The notes: generated by a model not told the origin, from the sequence alone. 64,000 bases of DNA from Candidatus Omnitrophota bacterium (GCA_016782445.1 JADHYM010000001.1:10212-74211); one strand, 5' to 3'. Shown: positions 2,270-64,000, numbered from the stretch's first letter. Translations and numbers: made by a program.

Positions 2270-3294
2270 CGGGCATGTGCTCTTTTTATGCTCTTCCCAT
2301 ACGGCTTCCTTAATATCCCCTTTTCCGTAATGATCGCCGTTATGAATTTTGCCGGCGTCACGTCGAATGCCGGGTTGAAAACTTTTACATTTTTTGGCGC
2401 TATGAACTCTTTTCCTATTTTGCGCACCTCGTCCGGGTGGCGCTCTTCTATCGGTATGAAAGAGCCGTCTTTTATCTTCACGTCGATGGTAGAAAGGGGA
2501 GCTGCCACGTAAAAAGGTATCTTGTGATAATGCGCTGAAAGAGCTACCGAGTATGTTCCGATTTTGTTTGCCGTGTCACCGTTTCTGGCGATCCTGTCGG
2601 CTCCTACTATGATTTTATCTATTTTTCCGCGCGCCATCAAGCTTGCCGCCATGTTATCCGATATGAGTGTCGTGTCAATATCCTCATTTCTTAGCTCCCA
2701 GGCAGTGAGCCGCGCGCCCTGTAAGAGGGGACGCGTTTCATCCGCATATACTTTTATTTTTTTGCCCGAAGAGTGAGCCATGAAAATAACGCCGAGCGCC
2801 GTGCCGTAATCAGCTGTGGCAAGCCCACCGGCATTACAGTGCGTAAGTATCGTATCGCCCTTTTTAATAAGGGCATTTCCGAACCTCGCCATTTTTCGGC
2901 AGATATGCTTGTCTTCTTCTAATATTTTTTTGGCTTCCTCGAGCAAAATATGCTTTATGCGGGATACAGGCTCATACCTCTCTCGATATGCCGTTTCCCT
3001 CATCCTCTCAAGCGCCCAGAAAAGATTTCTCGCGGTAGGACGGGAGGTAGCAATGTATTTGATGGTTTTATCAAGGTCTTTAAAAAATGCCCTTTGGGAA
3101 TTCTTGACACCCAAATATACCCCGAATGCCGCCGCAATTCCAAGAGCAGGCGCGCCCCTTATCTTCATGGTACGAATAGCCTTCCACATCTCCCGCGGCG
3201 TAGTACAACTCACAAACTTTACTTTGTGCGGGAGAAGCGTTTGGTCTATTATCCGGACCTTATTTTTCTGCCATTTTATCGTTTCTACAGGCAT
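2266..3294 (-). CDS. mtnA: methylthioribose-1-phosphate isomerase (eIF-2B alpha/beta/delta family)
   Basis: MtnA/e2b2 signatures RGAPALGIAAAFG and VGADRIARNGDTANKIGTY. Confidence 0.75.
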   Translation of the reverse strand: MPVETIKWQKNKVRIIDQTLLPHKVKFVSCTTPREMWKAIRTMKIRGAPALGIAAAFGVYLGVKNSQRAFFKDLDKTIKYIATSRPTARNLFWALERMRETAYRERYEPVSRIKHILLEEAKKILEEDKHICRKMARFGNALIKKGDTILTHCNAGGLATADYGTALGVIFMAHSSGKKIKVYADETRPLLQGARLTAWELRNEDIDTTLISDNMAASLMARGKIDKIIVGADRIARNGDTANKIGTYSVALSAHYHKIPFYVAAPLSTIDVKIKDGSFIPIEERHPDEVRKIGKEFIAPKNVKVFNPAFDVTPAKFITAIITEKGILRKPYGKSIKRAHAR

Positions 3295-3325
3295 ATTTGC
3301 TTTTTGATATTTGATTTTTGATATT

Positions 3326-4429
3326 TCATACTGCCAAACTGTTAAAATATTTAAACAAAAACACCATTATAACGCCGCCCAGGTTATTCAGAACGTGAAG
3401 CGTGATCGATGGAACAAGGCTTCCGGTTCTTTCATAAAGGTACGCGAGCACCACGCCAAGTATTGTAATAGGTATAAATCCTACCAAAAAATAGGTCATC
3501 GCGTGAGTATGCAGAAATGAAAAAAGAACGCTCGTTATCATTATGCCCCCAAAAATCCCTACTTTACGCTTCAGGGCATTATATAGAACCCCGCGGAAGA
3601 ATATCTCCTCTATTACCGGACCGAATATGGATGCGATGAGGCTCGCTACAAAAATAAAAGCGATGTTTTTCTCTACGAGGAAAAGCTCCACGATAGGCTG
3701 GGGAGGCGGCTTTAGTTTTAACATGTTAAGCACGATATAGGCGATGACACCCACCAGAAGTATGACGGGCAAAATTGCCAAGTACCCGCATGCGCCATAA
3801 AAGACATTTTTTAGCGCGTTTTTCGCGCCGAGGCCCAGGGAAACGATTTTTTTCCGGTGAACCCGCCATAAAAATGCGAGAACCGCTGTCAGCACGAAAA
3901 AGTCAAGAACGATCGTGTCAAAAATCATCCTGAAATTGTCGTTCTTCATCAGGGTAAATTTGACTTTAAAGAAAAAGCTCATCGCGCTGCCTGCGAGCGC
4001 AAGCAGGATAAAAAAGAAATAGGCGAGTGAAAACCCGAGTATAACTATTTTCGCGCTATCGGCAAGGGTCCACGGCGGCGGGTCCGGTTTCACAAAACGC
4101 GCAAAAATATCTATTTTTTTAAATCTCCGGGAAATAAAAAATCCGTCTATCAAAAGCCCGAGAAGGAAGATAGCAATTATAAAAAGATTTGCGGAAATGT
4201 AGAAAAGGTAAAGGGGGGCGTTTCCCTTCAGGGCTTCTTCTATTTTTCTCGAGCGCTCCTGGGCCTCCTCGAACTCTACGAATAAAGTCGGCTTTTCGGC
4301 CGCAGCAACTTCTTTCGTGCTGGTCGGTAGAACTTCTTCTTTCGGAGCGCGGCCGGCGACATTAACTAAAATTATACCCGATACGAGTACTATGTATACC
4401 CAGTTGCGTTTTACAAAATTCCTTATCAT
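3326..4429 (-). CDS. CPBP family intramembrane glutamic endopeptidase (CAAX protease / Abi family), polytopic membrane protein
   Basis: C-terminal motifs EEIFFRG, FSFLHTHAM and SITLHVLNN, plus many TM helices. Start moved to the internal Met (MIRNF) located just after the metG stop; the ORF-track start at 4507 overlaps metG. Confidence 0.7.
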   Translation of the reverse strand: MIRNFVKRNWVYIVLVSGIILVNVAGRAPKEEVLPTSTKEVAAAEKPTLFVEFEEAQERSRKIEEALKGNAPLYLFYISANLFIIAIFLLGLLIDGFFISRRFKKIDIFARFVKPDPPPWTLADSAKIVILGFSLAYFFFILLALAGSAMSFFFKVKFTLMKNDNFRMIFDTIVLDFFVLTAVLAFLWRVHRKKIVSLGLGAKNALKNVFYGACGYLAILPVILLVGVIAYIVLNMLKLKPPPQPIVELFLVEKNIAFIFVASLIASIFGPVIEEIFFRGVLYNALKRKVGIFGGIMITSVLFSFLHTHAMTYFLVGFIPITILGVVLAYLYERTGSLVPSITLHVLNNLGGVIMVFLFKYFNSLAV

Positions 4430-5994
4430 TCGTCTTTTCCGGATACGATTCTTGGAAACAGAGGTTGCCCTTTTGAAATCTGCGTCCCACTTGTTACGAT
4501 CCCCCATAAAGAGGGGCGGGACCTTTGGTTGCTCTTAAACTTGATATTTGCGATTTTCTCTTTCATACCGAGTTGCGCCCAAATCTTGCCTGCCGTATCG
4601 GGTATAAACGGATACAGGCATATTGCGAGCGCTGCCAGGGTTTGCACCAGATTATATATCACTATTTTGAGCTTTCGCTCATCTTCTTTTGCCAGTTTCC
4701 AGGGGGCCTTTTCCTCTATATATTTATTCGCCCAGCCTATTCTTTCTAGCACAACCTTCAGAGCTGATAAAGAATTCATATTCGCATAAGCATCAGCCAG
4801 TTTTCCCGGTAGATCTTCCGTATTGCTTTTTATTTCATTATCAATATCCTTTTCCTCAACATCCGGGACAACGCCTGCAAAGTATTTCTCAACCATGGTA
4901 AGGGTTCTGTTAACAAGGTTTCCGAGGTCGTTCGCAAGATCATTGTTGTATTTATCTATGAAAAGCTTTTCGTAAAAAGTGCCGTCATACCCAAAGCCAA
5001 CCGCGCTAAGCAGAAAATACCTGAGCGCGTCTACGCCGTATTTATCCGTAAAATACGCGGGATCAACAACATTTCCCTTCGATTTAGACATCTTTTCGCC
5101 GCCGATTACCCACCAGCCGTGCACAAATATGCTTTTAGGCGGCTTCTCCCCCAGCGCAAGCAGTATAATGGGCCAATATATCGCATGGTGCCTTAAAATA
5201 TCCTTACCTATTACATGCCCAACATGAGGCCAAAGAGAATCAAACTTTTTTCTGTCATTAAGATAACCTATTCCTGATATGTAGTTTATAAGAGCGTCGA
5301 ACCAGACATAAGTCACGAAATTTTTATCAAACGGGATCTCTATGCCCCAGCGAAGCCTTTTCTTGGGCCTTGAGATACAAAGGTCCTGCAGCTCGTTTTT
5401 TTCAAGAAAACTTAACACCTCATTTTTTCTTATATCAGGAGTTATGAAAATCCTGTCGTCTTTTATGTGATCTATAAGCTCTTTTTGATACTCGGAGATT
5501 TTGAAAAAATAGTTTTCTTCGTTCAATCTTTCGAGTTTTCTTTTACAGTCGGGGCAAACCCCCTCGTTTACCTCGGCATTGCTGAAAAAGTTTTCGCAGG
5601 GCGTGCAGAACCAGCCCTTATAAACCTTTTTGTATATCTTTCCTTTTTCATTTAGAATTTGCAATACTTTCTCGACTGTCTTTTTATGAATGGTGTCCGT
5701 TGTTCTTATGAAATAATCATAATTTACTTTTAGCGTTTTCCACAGTTCTTTAAAACGCGGCACGATCCCGTCAACGAATTTCTTTTCTTCGCCGGCTTTG
5801 TATCCGGCCTTTAAGGCGGCCTGTTCGATTTTTTCTCCGTGCTCATCAGTGCCTGTCATAAAAAAAGTGTCCCCGCCTTCAAGCTGTTTTTCAAACCTCG
5901 CGGCGGCATCGCAAACAATCTGAGTATAGGCGTGGCCGATGTGGGGAGAGGCATTTACATAATAAAGAGGGGATGTGATATAAAATTTATTCAT
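4426..5994 (-). CDS. metG: methionyl-tRNA synthetase (short form)
   Basis: HIGH motif (SPHIGHAYT), KMSKS motif (KMSKSKGNVVDP) and a zinc-knuckle CPDC...C. Confidence 0.95.
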   Translation of the reverse strand: MNKFYITSPLYYVNASPHIGHAYTQIVCDAAARFEKQLEGGDTFFMTGTDEHGEKIEQAALKAGYKAGEEKKFVDGIVPRFKELWKTLKVNYDYFIRTTDTIHKKTVEKVLQILNEKGKIYKKVYKGWFCTPCENFFSNAEVNEGVCPDCKRKLERLNEENYFFKISEYQKELIDHIKDDRIFITPDIRKNEVLSFLEKNELQDLCISRPKKRLRWGIEIPFDKNFVTYVWFDALINYISGIGYLNDRKKFDSLWPHVGHVIGKDILRHHAIYWPIILLALGEKPPKSIFVHGWWVIGGEKMSKSKGNVVDPAYFTDKYGVDALRYFLLSAVGFGYDGTFYEKLFIDKYNNDLANDLGNLVNRTLTMVEKYFAGVVPDVEEKDIDNEIKSNTEDLPGKLADAYANMNSLSALKVVLERIGWANKYIEEKAPWKLAKEDERKLKIVIYNLVQTLAALAICLYPFIPDTAGKIWAQLGMKEKIANIKFKSNQRSRPSLWGIVTSGTQISKGQPLFPRIVSGKDE

Positions 5995-12741: not shown

Positions 12742-12890
12742 AAAAACCAAAATCCAAATGACAAATGACAAATAAAACCCAAATTCCAAATGTCAAATTT
12801 GCCTGCCTGCCGGCAAGGCAGGGATTTTGGAATTTGAAATTTATTTGGATTTTGTCATTTGACATTTGTCATTATTCCTCTATTCGCCCC
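12742..12890. repeat. composite roughly 150-bp imperfect palindrome: inverted and direct GTCATTTG-rich arms flanking a GCCTGCCTGCCGGCAAGGCAGGG hairpin
   Basis: Arms CAAAATCCAAATGACAAATGACAAATAAAA and TTTATTTGGATTTTGTCATTTGACATTTGTCATT; located between yacL and mlaD copy 1. Confidence 0.7.
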
Positions 12891-13549: not shown

Positions 13550-13571
13550 GCCTGCCTGCCGGCAGGCAGGC
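13550..13571. repeat. GCCTGCCTGCCGGCAGGCAGGC perfect 22-bp palindrome (family member)
   Basis: Other members lie at 9791-9836 (expanded variant), 12801-12823 and 27543-27564 (inside the anti-sigma ORF). A degenerate version lies at 52143-52167 in the homologous mlaD/mlaF gap of the second operon. Confidence 0.7.
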
Positions 13572-13619
13572 ATTCTTGATTACACAGATACTAACTACAA
13601 TCTGTGTAATTATTTTCAA

Positions 13620-14369: not shown

Positions 14370-14380
14370 ATTCTTTTTTT

Positions 14381-14411
14381 TACAGCTTAAAGCTTACAGC
14401 TTATAGCTTAA
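14381..14411. repeat. AGCTTA(N)AGCTT tandem palindromic repeat (family; other copies 23449-23466 and 56437-56466)
   Basis: TACAGCTTAAAGCTTACAGCTTATAGCTTA; all copies intergenic. Confidence 0.55.
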
Positions 14412-24310: not shown

Positions 24311-24348
24311 ACAATAGTAGGGGAGGCTTAAGCCTCCCCTACTATTGT
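24311..24348. terminator. perfect 38-bp palindrome between convergent genes (deacetylase and ORF6N)
   Basis: ACAATAGTAGGGGAGGCTTAAGCCTCCCCTACTATTGT is a perfect inverted repeat with no U-tract. Confidence 0.5.
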
Positions 24349-24851
24349 TACTTATCCTGCCGAAAGCCGATGCGGCGCTTCGGCTTTTCAGGAGACGCTA
24401 TAAGCTCCCGTATCGCGTCGAAAACAACTTTGAATTGGCGGTTATATTTTTTCTCCATAGTTTCAATTTTTTTCCTTAGGCTCCTATGAGCAAGCAACAT
24501 CTTTCTCAGCTTAGTAAACGTTCTCATAATTTGGATATTAACCAGAATCGCTCTCCTGCTATTTAGCACAGAAGAAAGCATGGCTACTCCTTGCTACGTA
24601 AAAGCGTAAGGCAATTTTCTTGTGCCACCCCATCTTGATGTCACATTCTGTGATATCAAAATATCGAATTCTCCTTTATTTAGCTGAATCATGAAATCTG
24701 CAGGGAATCTCTCTATATTTCTCTTTACTGCCTGAATCAAGGCTCTTGTTTCAACATGGTAGAGCCCTGCCAGATCTCGATCCATTATCACCTTCTCGCC
24801 CCTTATGAGAAGTATCTTATTTTCTATTCTTTCAGCTGGCACTAAATTCAT
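24348..24851 (-). pseudogene. ORF6N-domain protein interrupted by an in-frame TAG (amber) codon at 24594-24596
   Basis: The two adjacent ORFs (24594..24851 and 24348..24581) are in the same frame and read ...[38 protein letters not shown].... The TAG occupies the position that, from my recollection of ORF6N-family homologues, is normally a Glu in ...LPYAFTEQGVAMLSSVL... Confidence 0.7.
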
Positions 24852-27093: not shown

Positions 27094-27137
27094 GAGTTAC
27101 CCTTGCTTTACGCGGCTCAACTCAAGCCGCGCCCCTC

Positions 27138-27180
27138 ATATATAAGACACGCGAGGTAGCGTTTTGCTGCATTATTTTTT
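27138..27180 (-). promoter_or_regulatory. 43-bp conserved motif upstream of spoVG (copy 1)
   Basis: ATATATAAGACACGCGAGGTAGCGTTTTGCTGCATTATTTTTT on the plus strand; matches 38 of 43 positions with the copy at 27823-27865. Confidence 0.6.
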
Positions 27181-27227
27181 TAAATTTTTCCGGAATTCGG
27201 GCAAAATAAGAAGGGTTCTCGTCGGTA

Positions 27228-27300: not shown

Positions 27301-27795
27301 CTAGCGGGTCTTGAAGTTCCGAAGAATTCTGGAGGCCTCTTTTTCTCCGCCTTTTTGCCAGGCGTCATATATCATGATAAGCATGCGGGCATTCGTGGTA
27401 TCAAAAATCCACTTGGCGCCCATGAGAATTGCGGCAACTAAAAACTGCGCAAAGTAACCCGTCTTGAAAAACGATAGCGCAAACGCTATAATCGTTCCTA
27501 TAAGCCATATATGTTTTTTCCAGTTAGCTTTCATTTTTTTCTCCCTGCCTGCCGGCAGGCAGGCTTTTATCTTCTTGTATTCATCTACTGTCTGGTATGC
27601 GAATACAAGCGCGTCCATGCACTCGCCGCACCCTGCTAAATGCTGCTCGATTCGTTCCCTGCTTTCCCGGGAAACTTTTCCATTTAAGTAATCGTTTAAA
27701 ACTACTTCATTTATACACGTATTTGTTTTTACCATATTTTTCCCTTCGATATTTTTCTCACGCAATCGATCAACGCCTGACGTTTCGCCCGACAC
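27301..27795 (-). CDS. putative membrane-bound anti-sigma factor (zf-HC2 type)
   Basis: H..GCGEC zinc-finger anti-sigma motif, then one TM helix; immediately downstream of the ECF sigma gene. The ORF includes an in-frame copy of the GCCTGCCTGCCGGCAGGCAGGC palindrome, so it may be two fused ORFs. Confidence 0.55.
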   Translation of the reverse strand: MSGETSGVDRLREKNIEGKNMVKTNTCINEVVLNDYLNGKVSRESRERIEQHLAGCGECMDALVFAYQTVDEYKKIKACLPAGREKKMKANWKKHIWLIGTIIAFALSFFKTGYFAQFLVAAILMGAKWIFDTTNARMLIMIYDAWQKGGEKEASRILRNFKTR

Positions 27796-27822
27796 AACCG
27801 CAACCGATCAACGCCCCCCCCT

Positions 27823-27865
27823 ATATATAAGACACGCGAAATGCTGTTTTGCTGCATTATTTTTT
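27823..27865 (-). promoter_or_regulatory. 43-bp conserved motif between the ECF sigma gene and the anti-sigma gene (copy 2)
   Basis: ATATATAAGACACGCGAAATGCTGTTTTGCTGCATTATTTTTT on the plus strand; overlaps the last codons and stop of the sigma gene, and lies 27 nt upstream of the anti-sigma ORF. Confidence 0.6.
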
Positions 27866-28432
27866 CATTTTCTTCCGCATCCGGGCAATGATCGAGGACG
27901 CTGTCCCGACGGGAACGCGGATAATTTTCGCTATCTCTTTGAGTGAAAGATTTTTTTTAAAATATAATTTGAATAAGAGCTTTTCTCTTGAAGATAGCCC
28001 CCTGTATAAGTCTTTTATCTCGGCTTTTAAATCTCCTTCCGGCGCCACGCTGGCTCGCGCTGTATCTTCCTTTTTCAAATTATCAAAGTAAGATTCTTCT
28101 CCGATAAGTATTTCATTTTTTTTCGACCGCATATGATTCACGGAAGCGTTTCTTGCCATAACAGTGAGCCAGTAATCAATGCTATCTCTTTCTCTTATCT
28201 CTTCGAGCTTATTGTCGATCCAAAGCCCGGCAACGATCTCCTGTTTTATGTCCTTAATATCTTCTTCGCGAATATGGGGCCTCAACGAATACTGCGTGAG
28301 CGCCTTTTGTATCGCAAAAACTATGAGCCCTGAATATCTGGCAATGAACTCCGCCCACGCGACTGCGTCACGCGAAATACATTTATCGATCAACTCCGCC
28401 GTGCAGAGACCCCCGTACTTCATTACCTCCAC
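27857..28432 (-). CDS. RNA polymerase sigma-70 factor, ECF subfamily
   Basis: Region 2 followed by a region 4 helix-turn-helix (LSLKEIAKIIRVPVGTASSIIARMRKKM); about 190 aa. Confidence 0.8.
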   Translation of the reverse strand: MEVMKYGGLCTAELIDKCISRDAVAWAEFIARYSGLIVFAIQKALTQYSLRPHIREEDIKDIKQEIVAGLWIDNKLEEIRERDSIDYWLTVMARNASVNHMRSKKNEILIGEESYFDNLKKEDTARASVAPEGDLKAEIKDLYRGLSSREKLLFKLYFKKNLSLKEIAKIIRVPVGTASSIIARMRKKMKK

Positions 28433-34705: not shown

Positions 34706-34785
34706 GTTTGTCGCTCCATTATTAATATTACCATGTGATTATACTAAATACTTATACGGAGGTCAAGGGGTTATGATTGTGTTGT

Positions 34786-34901
34786 GCGGTTGCGGTGGCG
34801 TCGCGGGAAACGACTGCGTCAATCGGTTGCGTGCATAAAAAACCGCAGCCGTCCAACGACCGACGTTTCGCGCGACGCAACCGATCAGCGCAACCGCAAC
34901 C
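34786..34901. repeat. GC-rich roughly 120-bp dyad-symmetric element (family copy A)
   Basis: GCGGTTGCGGTGGCGTCGCGGGAAACGAC...GTCGTTTCGCGCGACGCAACCGATCAGCGCAACCGCAACC; the two halves are mutually complementary. Copies at 56993-57118 and a partial one at 27766-27818. All lie between minus-strand genes. Confidence 0.65.
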
Positions 34902-34923
34902 AAAACTTAGCGATATCTTTCTG

Positions 34924-36174
34924 CTAAAATTTCTTGCTCCCGAACATCTTCTTCTTCCTCAAGAGCTTATGATATGAAATAGCAAAGCGGTGGGCCTCGT
35001 CCCTTATCCTCATTATGAGCATAAGGGCGCGGGAATTCTTTTCTATTTTTAGCGGCTTTCCGCAAGCCTCGGCGTAAAGAAGCTCATGCTCCTTGGCAAT
35101 GCCTATAAGAGGCACGGCCGGCATACCTATTTTTTTAAGCTCATCCTGCGCTACCCCTACGTGGCCCCTGCCCCCGTCGATTATAATAAGGTCGGGAAAT
35201 GGCAGCTTCTCTTTTAGTACGCGCGAATACCTCCTTCTTACGACTTCCCGGATCATGCCATAATCATCTATCCCGCGCGAGGCTTTTATCCTGAAGCGCT
35301 TATATTCGCCATTTCTGGGCCTGCCGCCAAGAAAAGTCACCATAGAACCGACAGCCTCTTTCCCGTGTATATTTGATATGTCGAACGCCTCTATGCGGGA
35401 AGGAAGCCCTTTAAGGCCAAGCGCGTTCTTTAGTTCCCAGAGGTCCTTGTCCAGAGGGGGCGCGCCTTTTCTGCCGCTCCACATGTGGCCGAGGGCCTCT
35501 ATTTTATCCCTTAGAAAAATCGCCTTCTCGTAATCAAGCCTCCCGGAAGCTCGCTTCATACGGGCCGAAAGCCGCTTTACCAAACCTTCTTTTCTTCCGT
35601 TGAGAAAAAATCGCAGGTCCCCGGCAAGTTTCCTGTAATCTTTTTCCGAGATTCTTCCGATACAGGGCGCGGCGCACCGCCCGAGGTGGGCCTTAAGGCA
35701 CGCTTTTCCGGGCAAAGATTCACATGTCCTTATGCCAAAAACGCCGGATACGAGGGATACGGCTTTCCGCAAAAGGTGCGCGCTCGTATACGGGCCGAAA
35801 TAGCGGGAGGTATCTTTTTTCTTCCTCCTCGTAACATAAATACCGGGAAACCTCTCACCTATCGTAAGTTTTAAAAACGGGTAGGACTTATCATCTCTCA
35901 ACTCTATGTTGTATTTCGGCTTTTTTTCTTTTATGAGGATGGCTTCGTAGATCAGCGCTTCCGCGCTTGAGGGCGTTTTTAAATAATTCACGCCTTTTAT
36001 GTTTTCCACAAGCGCTTTTATGCGCGGGGGGTGGTATTTTTTTTGAAAATAACTCGACACGCGCTTTTTGAGGTTTGACGCCTTGCCTACGTAGAGAACC
36101 TCTTTGTTTTTACCAAAAAAGACGTAAACGCCGGGCGTGACAGGCAGGCTTAAAAGCGTTTTTTTGATATCCAT
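34924..36174 (-). CDS. uvrC: excinuclease ABC subunit C-like protein (short form lacking the C-terminal HhH)
   Basis: GIY-YIG domain (GVYVFFGKNKEVLYVGKA), UvrC Cys motif, UVR domain and an RNase H-like endonuclease domain; 416 aa. Confidence 0.75.
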   Translation of the reverse strand: MDIKKTLLSLPVTPGVYVFFGKNKEVLYVGKASNLKKRVSSYFQKKYHPPRIKALVENIKGVNYLKTPSSAEALIYEAILIKEKKPKYNIELRDDKSYPFLKLTIGERFPGIYVTRRKKKDTSRYFGPYTSAHLLRKAVSLVSGVFGIRTCESLPGKACLKAHLGRCAAPCIGRISEKDYRKLAGDLRFFLNGRKEGLVKRLSARMKRASGRLDYEKAIFLRDKIEALGHMWSGRKGAPPLDKDLWELKNALGLKGLPSRIEAFDISNIHGKEAVGSMVTFLGGRPRNGEYKRFRIKASRGIDDYGMIREVVRRRYSRVLKEKLPFPDLIIIDGGRGHVGVAQDELKKIGMPAVPLIGIAKEHELLYAEACGKPLKIEKNSRALMLIMRIRDEAHRFAISYHKLLRKKKMFGSKKF

Positions 36175-52137: not shown

Positions 52138-52169
52138 CGCACCCTCCCTGTCCGCCGGTAGGCGGGCGT

Positions 52170-52970
52170 TTATTTCGTTAATTGTTCCAAATAATCGTCA
52201 CTTTTCTGAAAGAACTTTATCGGGCCGTCCGGGTCGCCTGCCAGGAATTGTTTTACAAGAGGGTTTTTCGAATGTTTTATTTCGTCCTTAGTGCCGACTT
52301 CGACAACTTTCCCTTCATAAAGCATCGCGATCCTGTCCGCGATGCGAAACACGCTTCCCATGTCGTGGGTCACCACTATGCTCGTGATAGAAAGTTTTTT
52401 TGAAAGGTCCAATATCAATTTGTCAATTACGCCCGCCACTATCGGGTCAAGGCCGGCCGTGGGTTCGTCGTAAAAAATGATTTCCGGGTCCATGGCAATG
52501 GCGCGCGCTAGGCCCACTCTTTTTTTCATGCCGCCTGAAAGCTGGCTTGGCATGAGATCCTCAAAGCCGCTCAAGCCCACGAGCTCGAGCTTCATCTTTA
52601 TCATTATATTTATTACATTTTCCTCGAGCTTCGTGTGCTCCCTTAGGGCCAGGCTCACGTTTTCGCCCACTGTCATCGAATCAAAAAGAGCCGAGCCCTG
52701 GAACGACATGCCTACTTTCTTTTTTATCGCGTCCATCTCGTCCTCTGTAAGATTCGTTATATCGGTCCCGAGAAGCGACACCCTGCCGGAATCCGGCTTA
52801 AGCGAGCCTATCATGTGCCTCAAGAGCGTCGACTTTCCGCAGCCCGAGCCTCCCATGATAACAAACGTCTCGCCCTTCTTTATCTCGAGGTCAATGCCGT
52901 TTAAAATGGTGCGTTCGCCGAAACGCCGCACCAGATTTTCTACTTTTACGGCTGTTTCTTTATGTTCCAT
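52170..52970 (-). CDS. mlaF: ABC transporter ATP-binding protein MlaF, copy 2
   Basis: Walker A GGSGCGKST and signature LSGGMKKRVGLARA; estimated about 50-55 percent identity to copy 1 from by-eye alignment of the two listed proteins (no alignment computed). Confidence 0.8.
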   Translation of the reverse strand: MEHKETAVKVENLVRRFGERTILNGIDLEIKKGETFVIMGGSGCGKSTLLRHMIGSLKPDSGRVSLLGTDITNLTEDEMDAIKKKVGMSFQGSALFDSMTVGENVSLALREHTKLEENVINIMIKMKLELVGLSGFEDLMPSQLSGGMKKRVGLARAIAMDPEIIFYDEPTAGLDPIVAGVIDKLILDLSKKLSITSIVVTHDMGSVFRIADRIAMLYEGKVVEVGTKDEIKHSKNPLVKQFLAGDPDGPIKFFQKSDDYLEQLTK

Positions 52971-56429: not shown

Positions 56430-56470
56430 ATTTTTTATAGCTTACAGCTTAAAGCTTACAGCTGTAAAAA

Positions 56471-56929
56471 TTACCACAATAAAAGCGTGACCCCAATGCC
56501 GCAGGCTATTCCCACCAGCACCTCGATAGGCGTGTGCCCGAGAAGTTCCTTGAGGCGGTCTTCTTGTGTGTGCTTCTTCCAGTATATGTCATCCAGCATC
56601 TTGTTTAGGATTTCTGCCTGCTTGCCTGTGGCCCTCCTTACGCCTTGCGCGTCCATTATCACTATGACTGCGAACGCGACGCATAAAGCAAAGAGCGCGG
56701 AATCAAAACCGACATAAAGCCCCATGGCCGTGGAAAGGGCGCTTACGGTAGCGGAATGAGAACTCGGCATCCCACCGGTTCCGACAAACCACCTGAAGTC
56801 AAACCGCTTCTCGCGAATGACGCCCAGAATAACCTTGATGGTCTGGGTTATCGCCCACGCGTAGATAGTGATAAGAAGCACCTTATTTTGGACGAGTTCT
56901 ACAAATATTTGGCGCGATGATGGGTCCAT
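56471..56929 (-). CDS. divergent PAP2 family membrane protein (DUF212/YuiD-like)
   Basis: GMPSSHSA motif and 4 TM helices. Confidence 0.7.
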   Translation of the reverse strand: MDPSSRQIFVELVQNKVLLITIYAWAITQTIKVILGVIREKRFDFRWFVGTGGMPSSHSATVSALSTAMGLYVGFDSALFALCVAFAVIVIMDAQGVRRATGKQAEILNKMLDDIYWKKHTQEDRLKELLGHTPIEVLVGIACGIGVTLLLW

Positions 56930-56992
56930 ATTAGGGTATTATTATAATATATACCTACTAGTTATGCAAGGTTGAGTTCGAAATATTGATAC

Positions 56993-57118
56993 GTTTACGT
57001 CGGTTGGCTGTGGTTGCGTCGCGCGAAACGTCGGTTGTCAATCGGTTGCGTTAATATTGACGCAACCCACCCACGCGACCGATTCTCGCGACGCCACCGA
57101 TTGACTTAAACCGCAACC
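56993..57118. repeat. GC-rich roughly 120-bp dyad-symmetric element (family copy B)
   Basis: GGTTGCGTCGCGCGAAACGTCGGTTGTCAATCGGTTGCGTTAATATTGACGCAACC...CGCGACGCCACCGATTGAC...AACCGCAACC. Confidence 0.65.
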
Positions 57119-57119
57119 T

Positions 57120-58658
<1,539 letters not shown>

Positions 58659-61586: not shown

Positions 61587-61652
61587 ATTCAGTTCTCAGT
61601 TCTCAGTTCATAGCTATCAGTAGAACAAAAACTGATAACTGATTACTGAAAA

Positions 61653-64000
61653 TTAGCCGCACTTGGAATATCCGCAGGAGCGACACACCATGCATCCTTC
61701 TACATGCCAGAGCGCCCCTCCGCAATCAGGGCATACGCCTACTATGTTGCCTGTTTTCTTTTTAGTGGCTACGGCAGTCGAGCCCGTGGACACAGGGGGG
61801 CTTGAGGTGTTCTCTTTTTCAGGAAGAGGCTTTTCTTCTTTACGGGTTTTACCGAGGAGCCTTTGCTCCACGACACGCGCTATCGCGTCGGAACATGAAA
61901 AAATCCTCCCGCCTTTTTCCCAGCTCGGAGACGGGCAACGTATTCCCCTTAGCTGCTCTATGACGGATTTTATCTCGATGCCACTTCGCAGGGCGAGCGA
62001 AAGTAACCTACCAATCGCCTCAAGCTGCGACATTGCGCAGCCGCCTGCTTTTCCCATCTGCATGAAAACCTCAAAAGGATGCTGTTCCTCATCCTCGTTT
62101 ATCGTGACGTAAAGGTTCCCGCATCCGGTGGCTATTTTTGTCGTAGTGCCGGATATGACAGAAGGCCGGGGCCGCGGAATTATTTTTTGCGAGTCTTTTC
62201 TCGGCTCTCCGTCTTTCGTCTTTTCTTTTTTCTCTATGTTCAGTACCTGCTCGGCCCTGGAGCCGTCCCTGTAGACGGTTACGCCCTTACATCCAAGTTC
62301 GTGCGCCAGCATATAAGTATTTTCGATATCCTCTTTTTTTGTGGAATTGGCGAAATTTATTGTCTTGGAAACAGCATTATCCGTATACTTTTGAAACGCT
62401 GCCTGTATTCTTATGTGCCACTCGGGAGTAATGTCATGCGAGGTAACAAAAAGTTTCCTTACGTCTTCCGGAACTTCCTTTAGCTCCTGGATGTTGCCTT
62501 TTTTAGCTATTTTTTTAAGAAGCTCTTCGCTCCAGAAGCCCCTGTCTTTCGCTATTTTCTCAAACTGTTCGTTGACCTCCGGCAGCTTATCCTTATCCAT
62601 TACTTCTTTATAATACATTATGGCAAAAAGCGGCTCGATGCCGCTTGAGCACCCGGCGATTATGCTTAAAGTTCCCGTGGGCGCTATGGTAGTCACTGTG
62701 GCGTTTCTGAACCTGGATCCGTTTCTCTCACTGTATATGCTCTTTTCAAAATTGGGAAAAACGCCGCGTGTCTCGGCGAGCTCAGATGAAACTTTTCTCG
62801 CCTCTTTCAGTATGAACGCCATCAGCTTATCCGCAGTTCTTACAGCCTCTTCCGAATTATAGGCTATGCCGAGGTCTATCAGCATATCCGCGAATCCCAT
62901 TACTCCCAGTCCGATCTTGCGGTTGGCCCTGGTAATTTTTTCGATCTCTGGGAGCGGAAACCGGTTCATGTCGATGACGTTATCCAGAAAATGGACCGCG
63001 CCCCTTGTCGCCCGTGCAAGCTTTTCCCAGTCGATTTTCCCGCCGGTAATCATTCTGGAAAGATTTATGCTGCCCAGATTACAACTTTCATATGGTAACA
63101 AAACTTGTTCACCGCATTGGTGAGTAACCATCCCGTTAACAACCATGGAATGCGTAAAGGGTTCGGTAAGATCAAAAACCGGCTTCACGCCGTTATATTT
63201 TATTGAGCGTATTTCGTCAAAAAACTTCTCTTCGTAGAATCGAGTAAATTTAATGTTATCTAATTTGCTTTTTTTGTCATTATTGATAAAATTGATTTTC
63301 TTTCTGAATCTCTCGCGGCTGGCTCCGAATATACACAGCTCATACAGTACGCCATCGCTCATATAACTTTTTAGCTTACCCGACTTATCAAGATATTTAA
63401 AAAGCCTCTTTCTTGCCTTGCGGCTTCTGTCATAGATACTGCTTTTAATACCCATGTTCAGCAATAAGAGCTGAACCCCTTGAAGCAATTTTTTACTTTT
63501 GGAGGTTAGCGCTACCCATTCGCTATTGGGTTTTGGATTGCTTCTAACAGTTCCGTCTGCCGAAAAAAGCGCCTGGAGAAATCCTGTAACCGCTTCTTCC
63601 GGAGCCGTAAACAAGGTTTCTGGCACTTCTTTGTCATTCGCACCTTTTATTTTAACGCCCAGTTTTTTGAAGAAATCCACAACCTGCCTACTGCCATACG
63701 CCAGATGAAAGACCTCTCTCTCCCGCATGATTCCTTCTACCTCGTATCCGCACATTCTGTTGAGAATCGGTTTTAAATAATCCAGTATTTCCCTGTCGTC
63801 TCTTCCGAAAGAAAAAGCCACGCACGCATGATTGTCATCCCTTATCCACCCGTCTCCGATAAGCCATCCTAAAATATGTCCCAGTTCTTTTGACCATTCG
63901 CATGGGAAATTAAATTTATAAACCCTTCCGTTTCTGCCTTTAATTTCATTGGAAACGCTAAAGGGTAATTCTTTATTTTTGTTAAATCTTCCACTCGCGC
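61653..64000 (-). CDS. nrdJ: class II (adenosylcobalamin-dependent) ribonucleotide reductase NrdJ, intein-containing; 5' end beyond window
   Basis: C-extein begins CGEQVLLPYESCNLGSINL (thiyl-radical active-site region) and ends with a Cys4 zinc ribbon. Upstream of the CGEQ lies an intein. Confidence 0.85.
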   Translation of the reverse strand, partial: ASGRFNKNKELPFSVSNEIKGRNGRVYKFNFPCEWSKELGHILGWLIGDGWIRDDNHACVAFSFGRDDREILDYLKPILNRMCGYEVEGIMREREVFHLAYGSRQVVDFFKKLGVKIKGANDKEVPETLFTAPEEAVTGFLQALFSADGTVRSNPKPNSEWVALTSKSKKLLQGVQLLLLNMGIKSSIYDRSRKARKRLFKYLDKSGKLKSYMSDGVLYELCIFGASRERFRKKINFINNDKKSKLDNIKFTRFYEEKFFDEIRSIKYNGVKPVFDLTEPFTHSMVVNGMVTHQCGEQVLLPYESCNLGSINLSRMITGGKIDWEKLARATRGAVHFLDNVIDMNRFPLPEIEKITRANRKIGLGVMGFADMLIDLGIAYNSEEAVRTADKLMAFILKEARKVSSELAETRGVFPNFEKSIYSERNGSRFRNATVTTIAPTGTLSIIAGCSSGIEPLFAIMYYKEVMDKDKLPEVNEQFEKIAKDRGFWSEELLKKIAKKGNIQELKEVPEDVRKLFVTSHDITPEWHIRIQAAFQKYTDNAVSKTINFANSTKKEDIENTYMLAHELGCKGVTVYRDGSRAEQVLNIEKKEKTKDGEPRKDSQKIIPRPRPSVISGTTTKIATGCGNLYVTINEDEEQHPFEVFMQMGKAGGCAMSQLEAIGRLLSLALRSGIEIKSVIEQLRGIRCPSPSWEKGGRIFSCSDAIARVVEQRLLGKTRKEEKPLPEKENTSSPPVSTGSTAVATKKKTGNIVGVCPDCGGALWHVEGCMVCRSCGYSKCG
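63117..64000 (-). mobile_element. intein with LAGLIDADG homing-endonuclease domain inserted in nrdJ (N-terminal junction outside window)
   Basis: Intein C-terminal blocks F/G read VFDLTEPFTHSMVVNGMVTHQ, followed directly by the extein +1 Cys. LAGLIDADG motifs are LGWLIGDGWI (translated from 63840-63870) and FLQALFSADGTV. Confidence 0.75.

Follow-up and report, generated by a model that had tools for sequence, protein, structure and literature searches.

Paired inverted arms between genes of Candidatus Omnitrophota, a probable family of small palindromic insertion elements

The window analyzed here, a whole stretch of 64,000 nt from a Candidatus Omnitrophota bacterium (GCA_016782445.1, JADHYM010000001.1:10212-74211), carries two full dyad elements, A (34772-34904) and B (56970-57119), and a half element consisting of a solo arm (27758-27813, minus strand). 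Element A is located between uvrC and prfB, element B between mnmE and a DUF212 gene, and the solo arm between genes for an ECF-type sigma factor and a zf-HC2 anti-sigma factor; the initial annotation had named these three gene pairs, and Pfam searches bore them out. The close protein relatives with a source name were all annotated as Candidatus Omnitrophota or Omnitrophica. A 19-nt core, GGTKGYGTCGSGNGAAWCG, matches exactly at five sites, one per arm: 27781-27799 (-), 34794-34812 (+), 34864-34882 (-), 57012-57030 (+), and 57080-57098 (-). Up to three mismatches could be allowed without obtaining another site in the window, 0.43 matches being expected by chance. The dyads of about 120 nt and the half copy described initially are real and far above chance.

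The arms were delimited with a covariance model (R1) built from ten full elements and with a hidden Markov model (HMM) of 22 arms, within a sample of 11 full copies and two solo arms; neither model found an additional copy in the window. Element A scored 118 bits on the plus strand and 81 bits on the minus strand with R1 and was also recognized by the arm HMM. It consists of a β-type arm read on the plus strand (~34773-34834), an A-rich loop (~34835-34842), and an inverted α-type arm (~34843-34898). Element B (R1, 114 bits on the minus strand) is an exact 150-nt insert defined by alignment to empty sites, with an α-type arm read on the plus strand (56993-57053), a loop, an inverted β-type arm (57058-57113), and a 22-nt tail on the promoter side (56970-56991). 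The initial annotation had thus placed the elements correctly but drawn them too narrowly, as judged from the model for A and from the empty-site comparison for B. The solo arm is of the α type and was identified by its core match and by the arm HMM (E = 2e-14). Upstream of it in the direction of transcription lie a G8 run and a repeated motif of 43-61 nt. The anti-sigma gene and the solo arm are enclosed by a 61-nt direct repeat (27132-27192 and 27817-27877, 82% identical), which includes the 43-bp motif noticed earlier and a C8/G8 run and might represent either a second copy of a promoter or a further repeat family.

Compared with shuffled sequences, the RNA folding z scores were -5.0 (plus strand) and -4.3 (minus strand) for element A and -5.0 and -3.1 for element B, and the DNA folding z scores of the full elements ranged from -6.1 to -2.5. 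In the GC-corrected ranking of ~6,400 sliding 140-nt windows the two elements took the third and fourth places, and element A had the lowest raw energy among the windows listed. The stems comprise 41 to 47 imperfect pairs, which falls short of the hairpin of 50 bp or more assumed at first; because indels distinguish the arms, an ungapped inverted-repeat finder missed the dyads. The solo arm folded at the level of its shuffles (z = +0.53 and +0.33), a single arm not being palindromic itself. The GC content of the elements (0.54-0.60; window, 0.467) is far above that of the AT-rich intergenic flanks, as had been stated, but not far above that of coding DNA (~0.5).

Other palindromes occur in the window. 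Its most structured 140-nt stretch is 24311-24450 (z = -4.9), where a perfect 19-bp palindrome between convergent genes (24311-24348) is probably a bidirectional terminator. The second most structured one, 12748-12868 (z = -4.7), is an AT-rich counterpart of the dyads, in which a run of ~45 nt made up of heptamers of the AAATGAC type stands on one side of the GC palindrome CTGCCTTGCCGGCAGGCAGGC and its inverted complement on the other. A short GC-rich palindrome, (G)CCTGCCTGCCGGCAGGCAGG(C), has four intergenic copies (13550-13574, 27544-27567, 52147-52170, and ~12795-12820), some of them directly before a ribosome-binding site, and represents a second, REP-like repeat family.

In each full element, two arms of ~60 nt stand in inverted order around an A/T-rich loop of 8-18 nt, and the arms are convergent in all 11 full elements. 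An arm is a degenerate series of about nine units of 6-7 nt, most of which end in CpG, and it is G/T-rich on one strand. The units follow the order TCAATCG, GTTGCG, core GTCGCGNGAAWCG, and then TCAATCG and GTTGCG once more, the arm consensus being CGTCAATCG GTTGCG GTTGCG TCGCGCG AAACG TCGGTCG TCAATCG GTTGCG T. In the aligned arms, CpG is found at positions ~1, 8, 15, 21, 27, 34, 39, 46, 53, and 59; the autocorrelation has maxima at lag 7 (z = 3.9) and lag 13 (z = 6.3), and the unit period is 6.5 nt. Units have been permuted, lost, or gained among the copies, with four tandem GGTTGC units in L012 (comparison sequences are denoted by L and a number). The outer units in particular are permuted, and the element termini are neither sharply defined nor conserved. 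Two ideas based on composition were rejected. The genome is not depleted of CpG (observed/expected, 1.31), which speaks against CpG islands, and with 21 and 20 CpG per 120 nt the elements are only modest outliers, as other windows reach 19; a DNA uptake sequence is contradicted by the lack of GGTTGCG enrichment outside the elements.

The two arms of an element are not mirrored halves as supposed initially, but differ in type. After the core, α arms continue with ...GAAACG TCGGNCG TC..., whereas β arms continue with ...GA GAAWCG GTTGCG TC... and are one base shorter. One α and one β arm are clear in 9 of the 11 full elements (L015 and L020 are ambiguous), and this asymmetry is conserved across genomes. 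No conserved GTAG/CTAC column is present in the alignment of the 22 arms. Arms of the same type share an identity of 0.628 within a genome (18 pairs) and 0.620 between genomes (63 pairs), values that rest on few copies. This near equality speaks against a recent burst from a single master copy and suggests that old lineages coexist and turn over slowly or that the conserved positions are constrained.

Arrays of 7-nt units are also found as simple tandem repeats in the window. Associated with minus-strand genes, they are located at 70-126, 871-921, 3293-3330, 14380-14411, 56435-56474, 61589-61609, and 61630-61649, and their units are AAATGAC, GCAAAAC, AAATATC, TAAGCTG, and GAACTGA. They finish 2-13 nt before the next ATG, in place of a Shine-Dalgarno sequence. 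As several units contain TGA or TAA, three copies put stop codons in all reading frames. Among the tandem repeats of the window a period of 7 prevails, with 2.5 arrays per 10 kb versus 0-0.9 in relatives. In L020, an AATGACA array adjoins the GC-rich element. Within mnmE, 20 copies of TCTGTCT (58318-58458; 141 nt, 47 codons) form an in-frame array in the TrmE_N domain, and L011 contains a related TCTGTCC array. In other assemblies, runs of N cover or adjoin the mnmE array (L001 and L003) or a short contig begins inside it (L004 and L005). Given these contig ends and the N runs, which are probably masked or unassembled sequence, we make no claim of variation in the length of this array.

In the ~77 kb of the source genome that were analyzed, there are three full elements and one solo arm; the third full element (L002:27-167) lies just past the window end, and a 10-kb extension of the source contig contained no extra copy. 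Two genes are found at the same end of the window: a ribonucleotide reductase gene (61653-64000 and beyond; L001:451-5226) has two intein-type insertions with a LAGLIDADG domain, and a small gene for a MamI-like protein of a magnetosome protein family (L001:118-312) is located just past the end. When one genome per GTDB species was scanned with a pattern fitting all five arms of the window, six arms were found in three Omnitrophota metagenome-assembled genomes (MAGs). JADHYN01 from the Black Sea has three full elements and one solo arm, and JBARPB01 and JABMQJ01 have one full element each; solo arms are known from two genomes. A scan of JGI metagenomes added two full elements on low-GC contigs, and a scan of viral contigs with the arm pattern gave no match. 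Seven isolated pattern matches in GC-rich genomes (Phycisphaerae, Opitutae, and others) had no partner arm and were judged to be chance matches. In every real case, a short A/T-rich loop separates two convergent arms, and the genes on both sides have the same direction.

The genes beside the elements in the other genomes are diverse: rubrerythrin/desulfoferrodoxin, epimerases, a glycosyltransferase, a GGDEF response regulator, M48 peptidase-ribBA, and smpB. Such unrelated neighbors rule out a gene-specific leader or riboswitch. No orthologues common to the window and the element-bearing MAG loci were found, and in several genomes the elements occupy nonorthologous sites. In every copy, the element starts 0-22 nt past the upstream stop codon, and the distance from the element to the next start codon ranges from ~9 to 250 nt. 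Read from the β to the α arm, the element strand is the transcribed strand in eight of the nine classifiable copies, element A being the exception. With these small numbers, the two-sided binomial P value is ~0.04, or 0.07 when one less certain copy is omitted. As almost all of the genes point one way, an equivalent bias with respect to replication would give the same pattern.

The most direct evidence on the origin of the elements comes from site B. In the window, exactly 150 nt (56970-57119) separate the mnmE stop codon TGA (57120-57122, minus strand) from the DUF212 promoter TTGCAT-17-TATAAT (56941-56969, minus strand), which a consensus scan had not called because its -35 hexamer matches at only three of six positions. 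Relatives of this site were found via the DUF212 protein, and the gene order mnmE, DUF212, LysM/YkuD, AccA is kept. In three of them (L038, L039, and L042) the element is absent, and the mnmE stop codon, which is TAA in L038 and L042, stands directly before the conserved promoter. The DUF212 proteins are 95% identical to that of the window in L038 and L039 and 84% identical in L042; the flanking DNA is 93.6% identical in L038 and ~89% identical in L039. The empty junction reads AAGTAA|TTGCAT and the filled one AAGTGA|A...ACC|TTGCAT, without a target site duplication at this one site with a known empty allele.

A corresponding situation was observed at site A. The 157-nt spacer between the uvrC stop codon (34924-34926, minus strand) and the -35 hexamer of prfB (34767-34923) contains element A, and nothing corresponds to it in the relatives. 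The prfB promoter TTGACC-17-TATAAT (34738-34766, minus strand; 11 of 12 matches in the scan) follows the element immediately in the direction of transcription. Six relatives (L026, L027, L029, L031, L032, and L033) keep the order MurJ, UvrC, PrfB, SecA, Lnt and possess the promoter as TTGAC-N17-TATAAT, abutting or overlapping the upstream gene, which is uvrC or its MGMT/DNA_binding_1 extension or gene. The conservation of this promoter shows that it is older than the insertion of element A. None of the six has an element between uvrC and prfB or elsewhere in the ~20-kb loci (12 kb for L031), and in L033 the sigma and anti-sigma genes are element-free and only 6 nt apart.

According to these sequence comparisons, the dyads are insertions, and their simplest history is gain in the lineage of the window. 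Precise deletion in the relatives is formally conceivable, but is less simple, because it would have to have occurred several times independently. The insertions enter the few bases that separate a stop codon from the promoter or ribosome-binding site downstream of it, and both remain intact. We consider it probable that the dyads are a family of small nonautonomous palindromic insertion elements of 130-150 bp in Candidatus Omnitrophota, of the same kind as ERIC and BIME/REPIN sequences and comparable palindromes dispersed between genes. The family is previously undescribed; in the full-text literature on Omnitrophota and repeats or palindromes, we found no description of it.

The initial annotation had alternatively suggested an undescribed cis-regulatory or structured RNA. 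Selection on an RNA, be it a structured cis-regulatory RNA, a small RNA, a terminator or insulator, or an RNase III site, could account for the strong folding of both strands, for the start of the copies within 22 nt of a stop codon, and for the orientation bias. In at least four cases (A, B, L014, and L015), a sigma-70-type promoter follows the element, which places the element at the end of a transcription unit. The tests for coevolution of the arms, however, gave results that were negative or marginal at best. In a partner-swap test, each left arm was joined to every right arm and the chimeras were folded: true partners had a mean of -59.2 kcal/mol and swapped ones of -62.8 kcal/mol (permutation P = 0.89), and when arm type was controlled for, P was 0.99 and 0.81. 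Chimeras of arms of the same type were 12-15 kcal/mol more stable than the real elements. The covariation term of RNAalifold was 0.03 kcal/mol. In the pair counts, 13 of the 24 stem pairs were invariant and 3 showed double changes, mostly inside one subfamily; the main one, a switch from C-G to G-C that might be taken as compensatory, distinguishes a subfamily of three elements. Only 1 of 500 shuffles reached the covariation score, but a control slid by three columns equalled it. Coevolution of the arms is absent or marginal, and the criterion set in the initial annotation itself gives the structured-RNA suggestion no support.

Further observations also speak against an RNA function. Sense and antisense strands of the elements have equal folding energies, one copy has the opposite orientation, no gene association is conserved, and close relatives manage without the element at the same junction. 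No copy has a U-tract after the main stem, and in element A only an internal subhairpin and the T-run of the loop resemble a terminator, although ordinary intrinsic terminators are used in Omnitrophota, as is evident from a canonical example in L015. There (4400-4600, minus strand), the element and a TTGACA-17-TACAAT promoter are followed by a structured leader with the terminator CCCCGGAGAAATCCGGGG and T8 before ribBA; the leader is presumably an FMN riboswitch. At gathering thresholds, Rfam recognized only two tRNAs in the window and no match to the elements, and permissive searches returned generic long-hairpin miRNA models with 20 bits versus thresholds of 100-150. With no convincing covariation, equal strands, no U-tract, and no Rfam family, the structured-RNA reading is unsupported: the hairpin itself is not selected, or at most weakly, and we regard a selected RNA element as unlikely.

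Conservation of sequence rather than of pairing would fit a platform in double-stranded DNA, in which the arms are arrays of 6- to 7-bp sites contacted by a predicted protein that acts on the adjacent promoter or on chromosome organization. Heptad arrays bound by the omega repressor and plasmid centromeres are models for such a structure. The 6.5-nt periodicity of the arms, the permutation, loss, and gain of units, the position of several copies just 5′ of a -35 box, and the equal arm identity within and between genomes all agree with this reading. However, the units differ strongly from each other and hence are not one repeated binding site; no candidate protein was identified; the copies in L009, L011, and L012 lie directly before ribosome-binding sites and lack a promoter; and the same promoters occur without an element in close relatives. 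The insertion polymorphism is also not explained by protein binding alone, and we judge it improbable that the elements are primarily a binding platform.

A broader functional reading, which appears quite doubtful to us, would unite the GC-rich dyads and the AT-rich 7-nt arrays in one unit-based system for marking operon boundaries. Runs of 6- to 7-nt units would then be read by a predicted Omnitrophota protein or by the ribosome or RNA polymerase machinery, the 7-nt arrays would grow and shrink through unit slippage, and the dyads would be kept by their function, which would account for the equal likeness within and between genomes and for the constant presence of one α and one β arm.

Least probable, and very unlikely in our opinion, is a classical MITE (bacterial MITEs are reviewed in PMC3184786), i.e., a deletion derivative of a DDE-type insertion sequence moved by cut-and-paste via terminal inverted repeats with target duplications, since, for all the agreement in small size, long inverted arms, and intergenic insertion, the junctions of insert B lack a duplication, the termini are ill-defined with permuted outer units, the copies are only ~63% identical, far below typical MITE families, and the available sequence yielded no parent insertion sequence. 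The term "MITE-like" used initially holds in the broad sense, as close relatives lack the insertion at the corresponding site and the copies are dispersed among unrelated genes, but not in the strict sense, given the missing duplication at the one site with a known empty allele, the low identity of the copies, and the fact that no related transposase was seen.

Palindromic insertion elements thus being the preferred reading, the family can be compared with known repeats. ERIC or IRU sequences are reportedly imperfect palindromes of ~127 bp in Enterobacteriaceae and Vibrio (Hulton 1991; Sharples & Lloyd 1990; Wilson & Sharp 2006). The Omnitrophota elements resemble them in size and in being imperfect palindromes over their whole length. 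Further likenesses are the location in transcribed intergenic spacers in either orientation, transcription of the elements being predicted from their position, the consensus shared across distant genomes at differing chromosomal positions, and the lack of a known transposase. They differ in that their sequence is unrelated, as judged by eye against ERIC primer sequences, and in belonging to another phylum; arms composed of CpG-terminated 6- to 7-nt units, two arm types, and a clean pair of filled and empty sites are further differences. ERIC has been named among the unexplained classes of repeats (PMC3116915).

A REP unit is an imperfect palindrome of 20-50 nt, usually with GTAG 5′ of the palindrome, and the BIMEs of E. 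coli combine y and z REP types (PMC8266576); compensatory changes across REPIN hairpins are described as "common" (PMC3116915). Like these systems, the Omnitrophota elements are extragenic inverted doublets, able to fold into a hairpin as mRNA or when their DNA is single-stranded; each element combines two unit types (as y with z1 or z2), solo units are likely remnants, the target is not duplicated, and related genomes possess RAYT genes. In contrast to REP units, their arms of ~60 nt are not palindromic and have no conserved GTAG-like guide tetranucleotide; no RAYT gene was seen in the window or in the flanks of the six GTDB copies, and the copies are much more diverged. Since the arm is not palindromic, a GTAG-like motif is missing, and compensatory change is lacking, the family is not a REP/REPIN family. 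In behavior it is ERIC/BIME/REPIN-like, but it is a member of none of these.

Other comparisons are more distant. Correia/NEMIS, RUP, and Nezha elements have defined terminal inverted repeats, target duplications (e.g., TA), and a recognizable parent insertion sequence family. They resemble the Omnitrophota elements as hairpin-forming intergenic insertions of ~100-150 bp that lie near promoters and can be cotranscribed, but their defined termini, target duplication, and parent family were not seen here. Palindrome-associated elements derived from IS200/IS605 possess a pair of separate subterminal hairpins, and their insertion point lies 3′ to a constant tetra- or pentanucleotide. Recognition of a single-strand hairpin, which is predicted for the Omnitrophota elements, the absence of DDE-type terminal inverted repeats and of target duplication, and strand bias are common to both, whereas the elements described here form one long hairpin and show no evident common target motif at nine sites. 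Integron attC sites are imperfect palindromes of 57-141 bp between genes of the same direction, with strand-marking conserved mismatches and the boxes RYYYAAC/GTTRRRY. Despite the likeness in palindrome and gene arrangement, we rejected identity with attC: the flanks are housekeeping genes in conserved order rather than cassettes, there is no integrase, and on inspection ACGCAAC/GTTGCGT deviate from the attC boxes at one position each. Cyanobacterial STRR heptamers are another type of 7-nt direct-repeat array. Heptamer arrays share with the elements the intergenic location and the unit size, but are direct repeats of a single unit near start codons, whereas the elements are composite dyads behaving as insertions. 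The 7-nt arrays of the window resemble the TAACTGA repeats (PMC4679880), which have been described in Beggiatoaceae, cyanobacteria, and Bacteroidetes (PMC4679880).

Mobilization by HUH enzymes has been proposed for REPINs and shown in vitro for IS200/IS605 and TnpA-REP (PMC3116915, PMC8266576). For the Omnitrophota elements, we infer that copying may occur in trans, the most likely substrate being a hairpin of single-stranded DNA that an HUH/tyrosine enzyme of the RAYT or IS200-like type would handle. Such a route would agree with several observations: the elements are hairpin-shaped with a conserved asymmetry of the arms, they leave no duplicated target, they show a strand bias, and RAYT genes occur in related genomes. 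In work on IS608, a strand bias relative to replication is reported for single-strand transposition. A gene for a REP-associated tyrosine transposase (NF047646) is present in L027 (17474-18055; 91 bits versus a cutoff of 80), and a homologue in L029 (17974-18534) scored slightly below the cutoff (78.4 bits). On either side, each gene has a palindrome of its own that differs from the elements (TAACCCCCCTATTTCTAACCTGGTTAGAAATAGGGGGGTTA in L027), and the palindromes flanking the RAYT genes are absent from the window. Both genes are situated where the gene order has been rearranged: the SpoVG-UPF0102-ComM block there has the opposite orientation to that in the window. A tblastn search with the RAYT of the relatives found nothing in the window or in the loci compared, among them all six GTDB element loci (the two JGI loci, L020 and L022, and the contig extension L035 were not included), and in the available sequence no transposase or parent insertion sequence was seen beside the copies.

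After insertion, the 3′ end of the upstream transcript would include the element, folded into a long imperfect hairpin. To judge from REP and ERIC, such a hairpin may damp read-through or stabilize the upstream mRNA, an effect that would be a side effect or later co-option and not the reason for the conservation of the sequence. The elements add a family of dispersed repeats to an uncultured phylum that is known only from metagenomes and for which our literature searches found no description of such elements. Repeats of this kind disrupt or mislead metagenome assembly, are usable as strain markers, and can change the read-through from one gene to its neighbor, and the results caution against annotating such hairpins as riboswitch-like RNAs. 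The pair of filled and empty sites, rare in being clean and free of target duplication, is a useful case for studying how ERIC-like palindromes spread.
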